Positions 46,815 to 57,803 of a stretch of DNA of 64,000 nucleotides are shown here, in pieces. The position numbers and the translations under genes were made by a program. The notes beneath the pieces were generated by a model. The model saw only the letters and a list, made by a program, of their open reading frames with translations, had not been told where the DNA came from and did not search any database. How positions within the stretch are numbered: the stretch's first letter is position 1; each line of letters opens with the position of its first letter. Source of the stretch: an uncultured bacterium (GTDB lineage Bacteria; Krumholzibacteriota; Krumholzibacteriia; LZORAL124-64-63); assembly GCA_963732385.1 (NCBI GenBank), contig CAVSZB010000007.1:544001-608000 (forward strand), written 5' to 3'.

Positions 46815-47058
46815 GCAAACCCTCCGGTAAATAGCGGCCGCATCCGCGGCATGACGCCGCGGAAGCCGATAATTCATCACGAGATACTAAGTGAGGAAAC
46901 CGGTGCCTCCTCGGGGGACTGTGAACGCTGTTGTCAACCCGGGCGAGCCAACATGGCACGCCACTGCAGTACGTTAACCTTATGCGGTCGTCCAGCCCTC
47001 CAGGAGGTGGTAGGTGAGCGGCGCCGCCGTAGCGGTCCACTCAAGAGTGACTGTCACC

Positions 47059-51923: not shown

Positions 51924-52241
51924 TCAGGCCGGCGGCAACGGCAGGGCCGCGCCGCGCAGTTCACCGAGCAACCGCGCCAGAATGTCCACGAAATCTTCAT
52001 GCGTGCGACAGCGTACCTCGCCCCCGCCCTCGCGGCCAAGCCGAACGTGAACGGCATGCGACTGGGGATGGCATTGGCAGAGGAGACGCCCATGCAGGCG
52101 GGCCACGATCCGGAACGGTTCCTCGTGCAGCATCACGCCGGGATCCAGTTCGCCCAGCAGATCCAGGAAGCGGCGAAAATCCTCGCGCAACGGCCCGGCG
52201 CGGACCAGCCCCGTCTGCACGGCGCCATCCCCGCTGTTCAC
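51924..52241 (-). CDS. Small hypothetical protein (~105 aa)
   Basis: GTGA overlap with the upstream stop; protein-like composition. Confidence 0.55.
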   Translation of the reverse strand: MNSGDGAVQTGLVRAGPLREDFRRFLDLLGELDPGVMLHEEPFRIVARLHGRLLCQCHPQSHAVHVRLGREGGGEVRCRTHEDFVDILARLLGELRGAALPLPPA

Positions 52242-53110
52242 GCGCACGCCTCCTGCGCCGCGGTGCCCGTCCGTCGCGACCCCTCCGCTCCCAGCGCCAG
52301 GCTGATGGCCAGAGGAGCGAACGGACAGGTTGTCCCGCCGGCAACCGCACTCCGGGGGTCACGGACTTCGGCGAGCAACTCGACGGTCGCCGCCGGGGCG
52401 CTCAGAGCGGCCAGAGCCTGCCACCGTTCTTGCTGGACAGCCATTCCGACGGCACACCCCAAACCATCCGAGTAGACGAGGACCTTGAGTTGGCGGGGCT
52501 TCAGCGCCGCGGCCAGTCGGCCGAGGCAGTACGCAGTGCCGAGGGTGCCCGCCTCCTCCGCACGCACGCACCACACCAGACCGTCCACGCCTTCATCGAA
52601 CAGGCTCCCCCCATCCCAGGCATGTGCCGCCTCAAGGGCCGAGAGCGATCGTCCCACCAGCCCGCCCAGATTGATCCAGGCGCACACCGGACCCGCATCT
52701 TCCCCGGGGGACCTTCCGGTGAAACGGGGCGGGACCACCTCCACCCCGCCCATCCAGCAGCGTGTGTCACGCTCCGCGTGGCCGAAGGCCGCGGGCCTGA
52801 ACAACGTGCGCAGTCGCTCCCGATCGCCGCCCCCCAGGAAAGGCGCCGCCGCCCAGGCCTGCCGGTGCCATTCTTCCAGCGTGACCCGCATCCGTCCCTG
52901 AGGAGCAGCGGTCCCACCGAGCAGCAAACTCGAGCGCGCCAGGCCGGCGGCGGTCCAGGCGGCCAGAAACCCGTGGCCCGCAGCGGCCACCGCGAACCGA
53001 TAGGCGCGCGTTACGGCGGAGGCACGCTCCGCCAGCGGGACCGGGGGATCCAGAAAGAGATCGACGACCGCGCGGATATGGTGGTCGCGGGGGGCCAGGT
53101 CAACAGTCAC
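52238..53110 (-). CDS. Hypothetical protein, possibly a degenerate MinD/FleN-like P-loop fold without Walker A
   Basis: GVEVVP, WINLG and DGLVWCV......GTAY.L..L resemble MinD/FleN strands; directly downstream of parA. Confidence 0.6.
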   Translation of the reverse strand: MTVDLAPRDHHIRAVVDLFLDPPVPLAERASAVTRAYRFAVAAAGHGFLAAWTAAGLARSSLLLGGTAAPQGRMRVTLEEWHRQAWAAAPFLGGGDRERLRTLFRPAAFGHAERDTRCWMGGVEVVPPRFTGRSPGEDAGPVCAWINLGGLVGRSLSALEAAHAWDGGSLFDEGVDGLVWCVRAEEAGTLGTAYCLGRLAAALKPRQLKVLVYSDGLGCAVGMAVQQERWQALAALSAPAATVELLAEVRDPRSAVAGGTTCPFAPLAISLALGAEGSRRTGTAAQEACA

Positions 53111-53123
53111 AGGCGTCCCGATC

Positions 53124-54197
53124 TCACGGCACGACCAGTAGTGAATTCACACCACCGAAATCATTGGGCACGGCCTCGGCGTTCTGCGCATCGGGCCGCC
53201 AGTCGCCGTCCACGATGAAGCAATACTCATAGCGCCCCGACGGCACCGGCAGCACCGTCTCCCACTCACCGTCACCCTTCGACTCGAGCGGCTCCCCTTC
53301 CGCCTTCCAGTCCGAGAACGAGCCGGTCACCCGCACGACCCGGGCCTCTGGGAACCGGCCAACGAATCGCACCCCACCGGCAGTCAGGCACGGCCCGCCG
53401 GCCGGGACCGGCAGCGCGTCAGCAACCGGCTCGGCCAGACCGGCGCCGAGCGTGAGCATCTCCGCGGCCAAACTACGAAAATCGAGCGCCGCCCGGCAGC
53501 CGGAATCGAGACGGCCCTCGGTCAGGCCGGCCACGACCGCCTCCTTCAGCCTTACGGTGTGATGCACCACGGTGTCGAGCAGCAGATCGCCGAAGTCCCG
53601 GGCAAGATCCGCCGCGAAATTCCGCGCGAAACGTGAGCGCGGATCGTAGTTCGACAACAGCACCCGTGGCTGTGTCAGGTGGCCGCGCCGTTCGCTCAGG
53701 ACCGCAAGGGTTTCGCGGAACTTGCGCACCGCCTGGGCGCTCTGAACGCTCGCATCGACCGGGACGATCGCTTCGCCGCTCGCGAGCAGGGCGTTGAACG
53801 TAAGCAGTCCGACACTCGGCGGACAGTCGATCAGCACGACATCGTAATCCTGAGTGGATCGTTCCAGCGCCCGGCGCAGGCGCCATTCGCGGCCCGTCTC
53901 GCCCGCCAGCGCCTGTTCGACGCCACTCAGCTCGATCCCCGCCGGAATCAGGTCCAGGTTGGGAGCCACCGTCTTGCGGATGTCTTCGATGCGCGCGTCG
54001 AGAGTGAGATACAGATCGTACGCGCTGGCGGCGAAGTCCCCCTCGCCCAGCCCACTGGCCAGAGTGGCATGCCCCTGGGGATCGTTATCGAACAACAGGA
54101 CCCGCTGATCGCACTCGGCAAGCGCAGCGGCGAGGTTGGTGGCAACCGTCGTCTTCCCGCAGCCGCCTTTCTGGTTGGCTAGAGCGATGACTCTCAT
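53124..54197 (-). CDS. ParA/Soj-family ATPase fused to a C-terminal CBM48/AMPK-beta glycogen-binding domain
   Basis: NQKGGCGKTT, DNDPQG, LIDCPP; C-terminus VRF..PEAR.V.VTGSFSDW...G.W...L....GRYEY.FIVDG.W..D..N....GG.NS. Confidence 0.9.
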   Translation of the reverse strand: MRVIALANQKGGCGKTTVATNLAAALAECDQRVLLFDNDPQGHATLASGLGEGDFAASAYDLYLTLDARIEDIRKTVAPNLDLIPAGIELSGVEQALAGETGREWRLRRALERSTQDYDVVLIDCPPSVGLLTFNALLASGEAIVPVDASVQSAQAVRKFRETLAVLSERRGHLTQPRVLLSNYDPRSRFARNFAADLARDFGDLLLDTVVHHTVRLKEAVVAGLTEGRLDSGCRAALDFRSLAAEMLTLGAGLAEPVADALPVPAGGPCLTAGGVRFVGRFPEARVVRVTGSFSDWKAEGEPLESKGDGEWETVLPVPSGRYEYCFIVDGDWRPDAQNAEAVPNDFGGVNSLLVVP

Positions 54198-54370: not shown

Positions 54371-54802
54371 CTACGGCAGGAAACGACGGCCCAGCAGCCA
54401 CCCCCCGACCCCACAGACCAGCCCCCCGGCCACCTCGCCCCAGGTATGTCCGGTAAGCTCGCGCAGACGACCGCGGTCGAGGGTATGAGTGGCGATCAGT
54501 GCATCGACCAGATCATTGAGGACGCGGGCCTGTTTGCCCACCTCCTGCCGCAACCCGGTCGCCTCGAAGACGACATACGCAGCGAACACCAGGGTCACCG
54601 AAAAGAGGGAGCCGCCCCAGCCGGAGCGACTCCCCACGAACAGGGCCAGCGCGGTGACCGTCGCCGTGTGCGAACTGGGCATTCCGCCCGAGGCGAACAG
54701 CAGGGAGAAGTCGAGCCTTCCACTCCTGCACAACGACACGAGCACCTTGCCCACCTGTGTGGCCAGCCCGGTCGCCACAGCCAGCAGTCCCATCAGCGGC
54801 AC
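54371..54802 (-). CDS. Divergent PAP2 family protein (DUF212)
   Basis: Q..K, SGGMPSSH, A.G.R...G.QA..LN, L.E..GHT..EV..G. Confidence 0.9.
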   Translation of the reverse strand: MPLMGLLAVATGLATQVGKVLVSLCRSGRLDFSLLFASGGMPSSHTATVTALALFVGSRSGWGGSLFSVTLVFAAYVVFEATGLRQEVGKQARVLNDLVDALIATHTLDRGRLRELTGHTWGEVAGGLVCGVGGWLLGRRFLP

Positions 54803-56224: not shown

Positions 56225-56450
56225 AGTTCCTCCTCGGCTACTGCTCCCCGCGCAGCGTGACGACGGCGCCCTGGCCAGCGCGGATTCTCATCCCACAAAG
56301 GGCCACAATCTACTAGATTCGGCCACGACCACCACCGCCTGAGCGCGATCCGCGGAAAATGCCCGTTCGAGCGGCTCAATCCGTCCGGAGCGCTGCCGAT
56401 ACGGAGACAGGACGGCCATGCCGGCCGTCGTACTTTGCCATGGAGGGACC

Positions 56451-57803
56451 ATGCCCGCATCGACTTCGGCCACCAGCGCCAACGGCGCCTGCCTCGCCAA
56501 ATTCAGCGGCCGCTGCTACCTCCTCGACACCAATGTCCTGCTGCACGACGCCACGGCGCTCGAAGCGTTCGAGCAGCGTGACATCATCCTGACCGTGGAT
56601 GTCCTCGAGGAACTGGACCGTTTCAAGCGCGAGAACGACGAGCGCGGACGCAACGCCCGGCGGGTGATCCGACAGATCGACGCTCTGCGCGCGGCCGGCA
56701 ACCTCCGCGAGGGGGTGCCGCTGCCCCACGGCGGCCGCCTCTTCGTACTCGTCGACACGTACGTCGACCAGCTGCCGCGCGGCCTCGACGGCAGCATCCC
56801 CGACAACCGCATCCTGGCGGCCGGATTATGGTTGAAGGCCCACGGCGCGGATGTTGTTTTCGTCACCAAGGACATCAACGCCCGCGTCAAGGGCGACGCC
56901 CTCGGCCTCGTCGCCGAGGATCTGCAGCGCAGCACGGTCAACTTCGACGAACTGTACACCGGGTGGTGCGAACTGGAAGTGCCGGATGCCGCCGTCGACG
57001 CCTTCTACAACGGCGAACCGTGCACTCCTGACGTGCCGCTGCTCCCGAACGAAGGGGTGCTGCTGCGCGCCGCCGGCAATGCCAAACACACCGCGCTCGG
57101 GATCTATCGCCGTGACACGGCACGAGTCGAGCCGCTGAAACACGAAGGCGCGCGCCCGTGGGGCCTCCAGCCGCTGAACCTCCAGCAGCGCTTCGCCCTC
57201 GAGCTGCTGATGCGCCCCGACATCCAGCTTGTCACCATGCTCGGCCAGGCCGGCACGGGCAAAACCCTGCTCGCCCTCGCCGTCGGTCTGCACCAGGTGG
57301 CCGAGGAGAAGAGCTACCGCAAGATCATGGTGTCGCGCCCGATCATGCCCCTCGGCCGCGACATCGGTTACCTGCCTGGATCCAAGGACGAGAAGCTTGA
57401 AAGCTGGATGGAGCCGATCTACGACAACCTGCAGTTCCTGGTCGATCCGGAGATGGAGAAATCCGCGGGCAAGGTCCAGTACCTGTTCGACGCGGGACTG
57501 ATCGATGTCGAGGCTGTTACCTACATCCGCGGTCGCAGTCTGCCCAAGATGTTCATCATCATCGACGAGGCACAGAATCTCACGCCGCACGAGGTCAAGA
57601 CCATCGTCAGCCGGGCCGGCACCGGCTCCAAGGTCATCCTCGCCGGCGACGCCTATCAGATCGACAACCCCTACCTCGACGCTTCCAGCAACGGGCTCAC
57701 GTATGTTGTGGAACGATTCAAGCAGGAGGCGATCTACGGCCACATCACGCTGGCCAAAAGCGAACGCAGCGAACTCGCGAGCCTCGCGGCGCGCCTGCTC
57801 TAG
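56451..57803 (+). CDS. PhoH2 family protein (PIN domain + PhoH ATPase)
   Basis: LDTNVLLHD, VLEELD.FK, DNRIL, TKDIN.R.K, G.AGTGKT, GYLPG...EK, YIRGRS, IDEAQN, GD..QID. Confidence 0.93.
   Translation: MPASTSATSANGACLAKFSGRCYLLDTNVLLHDATALEAFEQRDIILTVDVLEELDRFKRENDERGRNARRVIRQIDALRAAGNLREGVPLPHGGRLFVLVDTYVDQLPRGLDGSIPDNRILAAGLWLKAHGADVVFVTKDINARVKGDALGLVAEDLQRSTVNFDELYTGWCELEVPDAAVDAFYNGEPCTPDVPLLPNEGVLLRAAGNAKHTALGIYRRDTARVEPLKHEGARPWGLQPLNLQQRFALELLMRPDIQLVTMLGQAGTGKTLLALAVGLHQVAEEKSYRKIMVSRPIMPLGRDIGYLPGSKDEKLESWMEPIYDNLQFLVDPEMEKSAGKVQYLFDAGLIDVEAVTYIRGRSLPKMFIIIDEAQNLTPHEVKTIVSRAGTGSKVILAGDAYQIDNPYLDASSNGLTYVVERFKQEAIYGHITLAKSERSELASLAARLL

Follow-up and report, generated by a model that had tools for sequence, protein, structure and literature searches.

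A ParA-type ATPase fused to an AMPK-type CBM48 domain and paired with a predicted activator: a candidate system for placing storage glucan in uncultured bacteria

We analysed a stretch of 64,000 nucleotides from an uncultured member of the Krumholzibacteriota, hereafter the window. Three adjacent genes of its minus strand, which we call A, B and C, and the gene upstream of them are described by the following features (positions counted from the first nucleotide of the window).

53124..54197, minus strand: gene A, 357 aa, a ParA/Soj-type ATPase with a C-terminal CBM48 (translation, Pfam, homologue coverage)
53454..54197, minus strand: ParA domain of A, aa 1-248, with K10-G-G-C-G-K15-T16, D37/D39, H43, D124, R187 and R216
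53130..53375, minus strand: AMPK-beta-type CBM48 of A, aa 275-356, with W297 (W100 in AMPK), C326 (K126), W333 (W133), F347 (L146), G349 (T148) and N351
52238..53110, minus strand: gene B, 290 aa, an N-terminal ParB-like peptide followed by a predicted P-loop fold (MinD/Mrp/ParA class) in which Walker A is eroded (profile, fold, synteny)
53051..53089, minus strand: conserved N-terminal motif of B, aa 8-20, a weakened variant in the window (motif scoring)
51924..52247, minus strand: gene C, 107 aa, a small domain of the alpha-beta type that a weak fold match likens to YdhG/YjbR/frataxin; it overlaps the stop codon of B
54371..54802, minus strand: DUF212 (divergent PAP2) gene, the upstream neighbour in 13/20 loci, conserved within Krumholzibacteriota only

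Gene A starts with an ATG just behind an AAGGA. Its residues 1-169 match AAA_31 in Pfam (E 1.4e-44) and its residues 285-356 match AMPK1_CBM (E 3.3e-12, 46.9 bits for a cut-off of 26.8). The fusion of ParA and CBM48 is genuine and not an assembly artefact: the best 120 of 2,649 homologues of A align over 99-100% of its length, all carry PF16561, and the named ones among them are Krumholzibacteria. The nearest solved proteins to the N-terminal 250 residues are chromosomal ParA/Soj proteins (8RAY, E about 2e-37 to 4e-37; 1WCV, 2e-31), and those nearest to the C-terminal 90 residues are AMPK beta CBMs (E about 2e-7). A reached none of the NCBIfam equivalog cut-offs among the 25 matches listed. 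Its C-terminus is the CBM itself, with no membrane-targeting helix.

The original prediction read in A an intact deviant Walker A (KGGCGKTT), a DPQG and a DCPP. All are present, the second as DNDPQG. It also proposed two DNA-binding arginines by comparison with R189 and R218 of B. subtilis Soj; R187 and R216 are indeed there, and in sequence alignments they fall on basic residues of 8RAY and 1WCV. Among 121 aligned A sequences, K10-G11-G12-C13, K15-T16, D37, D39, Q41-G42-H43, D124 and R187 are invariant, while position 216 has R in 109 of them and K in the other 12. In a wider alignment of 128 fusions (127 loci and the query, some genomes being duplicated), the position of R187 holds R or K in 127 and position 216 in 125. 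The alignment with 8RAY, the ParA of M. xanthus, places D58/D60 of that protein at D37/D39 and R238 at R216. The R238E change abolishes non-specific DNA binding by M. xanthus ParA (PMC12462528). Motif 2 departs from the known proteins, with His43 standing in 121/121 homologues at the position of the catalytic N64 of M. xanthus ParA (Asn in Soj). N64 is described as one of three residues holding Mg and water (PMC12462528). The pocket that receives ParB is kept in part: Y81, E82 and L150-G151-L152 of M. xanthus ParA become Y60, D61 and V129-G130-L131 in A, and the equivalents of D110 and E117 differ between lineages of the family.

There is no ParB match in the window, as the original prediction had stated. 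The canonical parAB of the genome lies on contig C3, its ParB being next to a ParA other than A, which rules out the fusion as the main chromosomal ParA. Two more orphan ParA-like genes, of 282 aa and about 380 aa and without an adjacent ParB, occur in this genome (G000; C7:294514 and C7:1240977; L140 and L141).

The ATPase had been treated as partnerless. This does not hold, as two coupled genes follow it and the first of them, B, is its likely dedicated activator. B begins 13 nt past the stop codon of A, on the same strand, and it evolves fast (mean column identity of 18%). Pfam gave no match for the window's B, and no ParB domain. A profile of 14 B proteins matches MinD (E 6e-5) and FleN (4e-4) in the PDB, and the structure model of the window's B (pLDDT 78) matches Mrp/CooC/HypB/ParA folds at Z 11-12 (VIA, Z 11.9, rmsd 3.6, 189 aligned residues; Foldseek best E 2e-3). 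The less eroded B of locus L105 scores AAA_31 at E 1e-9. Profile-profile alignments of B with A gave low probabilities (27-31%). The GKT and the signature Lys are absent from the B proteins of Krumholzibacteriota, and a GK[S/T] remnant persists in some other phyla. From these models and profiles, B is best read as having a P-loop NTPase fold that belongs to the MinD/Mrp/ParA class, and as a predicted pseudo-ATPase. That B is a shadow ORF is ruled out by its position and by a motif conserved across phyla.

This motif, the N-terminal peptide, is the only part of B conserved everywhere. Six loci outside Krumholzibacteriota (L071, L075, L082, L083, L105, L109) have exactly LGRGL there, within the motif L-G-R-G-L-x-D/E-x-S-H-x-F-L. 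It reads R-H-I-R-D-I-A-H-L-Y-L in several other families of Krumholzibacteriota and H-H-I-x-x-I-A-H-x-F-L in the window's own family. The ParB that this genome encodes opens with the variant L-G-K-G-L. With a motif score built from 20 seeds and the reverse strand as null (maximum 15.3), 61 of the 108 loci not used as seeds have the motif just downstream of the fusion with a score exceeding that maximum; the peptide of the window scores 6.5, below it. The N-terminal motif of ParB binds ParA and is sufficient to stimulate it (PMC12462528). B is therefore best read as the activator of A, a role we infer from sequence. When a complex was predicted for the A dimer, ATP/Mg and residues 1-42 of B, the median was 0.22 for a mark of 0.32, the peptide used being the weakened variant of the window.

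Gene C has a model of pLDDT 86, for which the best fold match is YdhG-like with a middling Z of 8.4. Pfam gave no match for the window's C, and the Atlas leads for it were all below 0.9. In some other lineages its domain forms the C-terminal part of proteins of about 310-370 aa, and in the window's own family C was not found downstream at the majority of loci. The nearest neighbours of the module in the window are DUF212, a glutamine synthetase, an O-antigen ligase and a GT4, with no glucan genes among them. Neither bcs nor tad genes lie near A, and no sigma-70 promoter consensus was found. Four RNA libraries of one study carry relatives at about 90% identity; one contig covers everything between a point within C and the end of A, which, for a contig of an RNA library, shows neither transcription nor a single transcript. 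Two other genes of the window deserve mention. Positions 46880 to 41946 of the minus strand encode a secreted protein of 1644 aa that looks by eye like a peptidase C25 (gingipain-type)/FG-GAP protein, and similar ones occur near the module elsewhere (L045). A PIN-PhoH (PhoH2-like) gene at 56418-57803 on the plus strand diverges from the glutamine synthetase.

The CBM of A is the only AMPK-type CBM48 in the window's genome. In AMPK, glycogen is contacted by W100, K126, W133, L146 and T148, and mutating the two Trp and K126 lowers glycogen binding (PMC2642990). The pair of sugar-stacking Trp is kept in 128/128 aligned fusions. The position of K126 is R or K in 122, Gln in 5 and Cys in 1; that of L146 is mostly F or Y, and Thr is absent from that of T148. 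Four of the five contact positions are kept in the family, and the window copy reads W, C, W, F, G. Its Cys326 (codon TGC) is the only Cys at the K126 position among the 128. P0002 and P0003 have this Cys as well, but the sister P0004 has Arg, which identifies R326C as a recent change. The window copy may thus bind glucan more weakly than the rest of its family. The original prediction of a complete AMPK-beta/CBM48 stands as far as the domain goes, which is over the cut-off, but the dot in its motif GRYEY.FIVDG covers precisely Cys326, at the K126 position. Similarly, the Pro-rich linker noticed earlier is present in the window copy but is a local feature, the majority linker of the family being D-H-W-x-x-L-L-H-G-P. 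In the window's lineage, R326C thus comes together with a linker that has been remodelled, a B peptide that is weakened and branches that are elongated.

We took a sample of 150 genomes of the phylum, each at least 80% complete, and called carriers from E-values and coverage. The fusion is carried by 110 of them, seven of these as partial or split matches; the best match in the remaining 40 is a plain ParA or none. A scan of GTDB, with at least 80 loci, retrieved the fusion also in Eisenbacteria, Omnitrophota, Planctomycetota, Myxococcota, Desulfobacterota, Acidobacteriota and Margulisbacteria. The fusions of the Omnitrophota type lack B. At these loci (L081, L100-L135), a conserved gene of about 188 aa and a GH57 lie ahead of the fusion, which is often followed by a membrane protein of about 107 aa or a Lys-rich protein of about 130 aa. 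Six sisters of A (L076, L085, L088, L091, L097, L103) have, by eye, an acidic tail of 70-150 aa in place of the CBM48, and in four of them (L076, L085, L091, L097) a gene with the B-type peptide follows. Because ParAs devoid of CBM also precede the B peptide, the A-B core needs no CBM. Judged from these sequences, the C-terminal module of A is swappable, either a CBM48 or an acidic tail.

The window's genome encodes glgA and glgC over the cut-off, in one cluster with a GH57, and also a phosphorylase. By this gene content, the genome is predicted to make alpha-glucan. Neither GlgB nor GlgE was recognised in it, nor was a GH57 branching enzyme. Across the phylum, using glgC, GT5 (glgA) or BE_C (GH57 branching enzyme) as markers, the fusion occurs in 101 of the 120 marker-positive genomes vs 9 of the 30 marker-negative ones, counts in which related genomes are not independent, so that their Fisher P is an overstatement. 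The co-occurrence with glg genes that the original prediction put forward as a check is thus positive, but it is not obligate: nine carriers lack the markers. There are also 19/120 glucan-positive genomes without the fusion. In family f2, six genomes have glg genes and these carry the fusion, whereas the four that have none lack it, and in genus g32 a single genome (G095) has a GH57 branching-enzyme cluster and it alone has the fusion. Outside the Krumholzibacteriota set, GT5, GlgC or phosphorylase are found in 45 of 50 carrier genomes; these derive from 56 fused loci, six Omnitrophota-type loci being left out.

Alpha-glucan genes lie in 14 of the 78 fusion loci of at least 9 kb (16 with two weak TreS matches), a raw count. 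They come from three lineages: 12 Omnitrophota-type loci with the upstream GH57; L105, with a GH57 branching enzyme and a GT4 near the fusion; and L038, with a stand-alone CBM48, two GT4, a GH57 branching enzyme and a phosphorylase. A compact glucan cluster without glgC, composed of a stand-alone CBM48, GT4, GH57 branching enzyme, phosphorylase, MalQ and a GlgX-like gene, is seen at L143:1376-10555, L144, L145 and L038; it is patchy in families f5 and f8 and possibly mobile. In G079, a stand-alone CBM48 sits beside the second copy of the fusion, with the enzymes absent (L037). Family f1, considered together with G000, has glgC and glgA in 56/59 genomes, a GH57 branching enzyme in 0/59 and a GlgB over the cut-off in 1/42. 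It may have an unrecognised branching enzyme, for which a GH13 protein of 1184 aa is a candidate (L137:1840-5391), or make a poorly branched glucan.

The nine marker-negative carriers (83-96% complete), which have neither glgC, glgA nor GH57 branching enzyme, deserve closer attention. Five of them (G022, G028, G035, G060, G079; 91-96% complete) lack GT5, GlgC, BE_C, GlgB, GlgE, phosphorylase, GH13, GH57, GH77 and GT3. Among these, G079 is a single contig with two copies of the fusion, one of which has Gln at the K126 position. In the four others (G111, G115, G129, G139), the markers tested, a set without GH77 and GT3, are absent too, except for a weak GH57 match in G111. Lack of glycogen synthesis had been named as an observation that would speak against the original prediction. 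By gene content it does not apply to the window's genome, but it is true of part of the family, since five carriers lack all eight glucan families searched. The use of GlgE, GT3 or MalQ as substitutes in f5 and f8 was rejected (GlgE in 0/27, GT3 and GH77 in 0/5), where only generic GT4 at 25-34% identity were found. In four Myxococcota-type carriers (G179, G187, G188, G196), GT5, GlgC, phosphorylase and GH57 are similarly absent and GH13 genes number one at most; a fifth (G165) has many GH13 genes. In the nine carriers, the CBM is not decaying, because its mean identity is 77% vs 70% for the ParA domain; the contact residues are all kept. Such strict conservation without a known glucan pathway suggests either that an alpha-glucan route has gone unrecognised or that CBM48 has a new ligand. 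The glucan-free carriers also have a recurring cluster of predicted exported CBM48 proteins (L173:6967-13416, L158-L164, L167; G079, G022, G028, G035, G060), with two small lipoprotein-like CBM48s and a protein of approximately 680 aa that has a CBM48 at its N-terminus as well as a likely outer-membrane barrel. Elsewhere, a protein of approximately 945 aa has a C-terminal CBM48 and otherwise no Pfam match (L169:3166-6000), and at L172:2757-5488 an anti-sigma-like protein with CBM48 and a CBM48-barrel protein come after an apparent ECF sigma factor.

How could these parts work together? ParA/MinD-family proteins dimerise on ATP, coat the nucleoid and are released when the N-terminus of a partner stimulates hydrolysis (PMC11407121). 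From what is known of the family, A would dimerise on ATP and coat the nucleoid through its conserved Arg. The ATP dimer would pair two CBM48s and so might raise avidity for glucan in the ATP state only, the likely target of the grip being an alpha-1,4-glucan such as glycogen or maltodextrin. The ParB-like peptide of B would then trigger hydrolysis by A, hence release. Quite possibly, though at somewhat less than an even chance, A is such a nucleoid-bound ParA switch that grips alpha-1,4-glucan and is released by B. Particles of storage glucan would in this way be held on the nucleoid and spread over it, so that they are shared at division. The wider reading, which we hold tentatively, is that of a dedicated positioning system for storage glucan that spaces or partitions granules across many uncultured phyla, its ParA binding both nucleoid and glycogen and being switched off by B.

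A difficulty for tethering is that a ratchet requires the activator to be on the cargo, and no cargo-binding part is seen in B. Because that part is on the ATPase, and because there are A-B pairs devoid of CBM, a role of glucan as signal or sink comes almost as naturally as tethering. The CBM48 would then park A on glycogen or bind maltodextrin, and the state of the carbon store would determine how much of A is available, together with B, for some other target, for instance division, the origin region or a polar complex. The same domain lets glycogen inhibit AMPK (PMC2642990), and cross-talk with chromosome segregation is conceivable given that the peptide of B is ParB-like. Such a role would still require alpha-glucan, which is apparently absent from the glucan-free carriers, and the neighbourhoods hold no second cargo that is conserved across phyla. 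We consider it less probable than tethering but a strong rival.

These same carriers keep a ligand other than storage glycogen in play. The CBM48 could bind B, C, another sugar or an unrecognised glucan while the system positions some unknown cargo, the link with glg genes being largely one of shared ancestry and lifestyle. The nine genomes in which no glucan synthesis is known show higher conservation in the CBM than in the ATPase; such genomes have 4-6 AMPK-type CBM48 matches each, mostly predicted to be exported, and no glucan hydrolase was found; and in some relatives the acidic tail replaces the CBM. Yet the conserved residues are the exact sugar-contact set, with both Trp and the basic residue, and the gene lies beside alpha-glucan enzymes in three lineages. 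In addition, GH15, GH31, GH65, GH133 and sugar import fell outside the screen of the glucan-free genomes, which are incomplete assemblies. On balance, this explanation strikes us as about as probable as the sensing one, and it too is a strong rival. We give a much smaller chance to an auxiliary role of A in chromosome segregation with the canonical ParB, the CBM being accessory, or to a module under relaxed selection in the window's lineage. The close relationship with chromosomal Soj/ParA and the partly kept ParB pocket would suit the former, and the changes peculiar to that lineage (R326C, linker, B peptide, branch lengths) the latter; against them, a complete parAB lies elsewhere, A has its own peptide-bearing partner, its frame and all catalytic residues are intact, and R326C is recent.

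We found no description of a ParA–CBM48 system in the literature, of which subscription papers were sparsely covered and in which a supplementary table of domain architectures could still list the fusion. This agrees with the statement, made at the outset, that no experimental description was known. Two reviews of ParA/MinD proteins contain no mention of glycogen, granule or carbohydrate in the text searched and name no storage polymer or polysaccharide as cargo (PMC11407121, PMC10241942), and the first 300,000 of the 445,374 characters of a review of alpha-glucans mention neither ParA nor CBM48. If glucan positioning were true, the ParA/MinD family would gain its first polysaccharide cargo, and for the first time the cargo-binding module would sit on the ATPase. 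The module bears on whether bacteria actively place or inherit their glycogen stores. Even if glycogen is not the cargo, this would be a widespread undescribed ParA system whose activator is a ParB peptide joined to a dead ParA/MinD fold.

Comparison with known systems delimits what is new. A resembles the ParA of ParABS (M. xanthus, 8RAY) in sequence class, Walker A, the equivalents of D58/D60 and R238 and part of the ParB pocket, and B starts with a ParB-like motif. In contrast, A has a C-terminal CBM48 and a His at the N64 position, the parAB of the genome lies elsewhere, and B has a degenerate MinD/ParA fold instead of the ParB/Srx CTPase and HTH. The CBM48 is the same domain as in AMPK beta, with the positions of W100, K126, W133 and L146 kept in the A family, but it is joined to a P-loop ATPase where AMPK has a kinase scaffold, the family does not conserve T148, and the window copy has Cys at K126. 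TadZ/CpaE are degenerate ATPases. They and BcsQ, which serves cellulose secretion, are ParA/MinD-family proteins tied, like A may be, to the placement of a polysaccharide or a pilus (PMC11407121); A scores 80 bits for a BcsQ cut-off of 158. Another parallel is plant PTST2 with MFP1/MRC, a non-catalytic CBM48 protein proposed to set the start sites of starch granules (PMC11772324). PTST2 is a coiled-coil adaptor without ATPase, and the likeness is an analogy, with homology limited to the CBM. McdAB, which positions carboxysomes, and the other orphan ParA/MinD systems share with A-B a predicted nucleoid-binding ATPase and an adjacent fast-evolving partner whose N-terminus is the predicted activator (PMC11407121 and PMC10241942). 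McdA itself is only a distant match to A (E about 1e-9), and in both McdAB and ParABS the activator carries the cargo-binding part, whereas in A-B the ATPase does. The module is thus neither ParABS, there being no ParB, nor McdAB, yet by analogy it appears to work like an orphan ParA/MinD positioning system.
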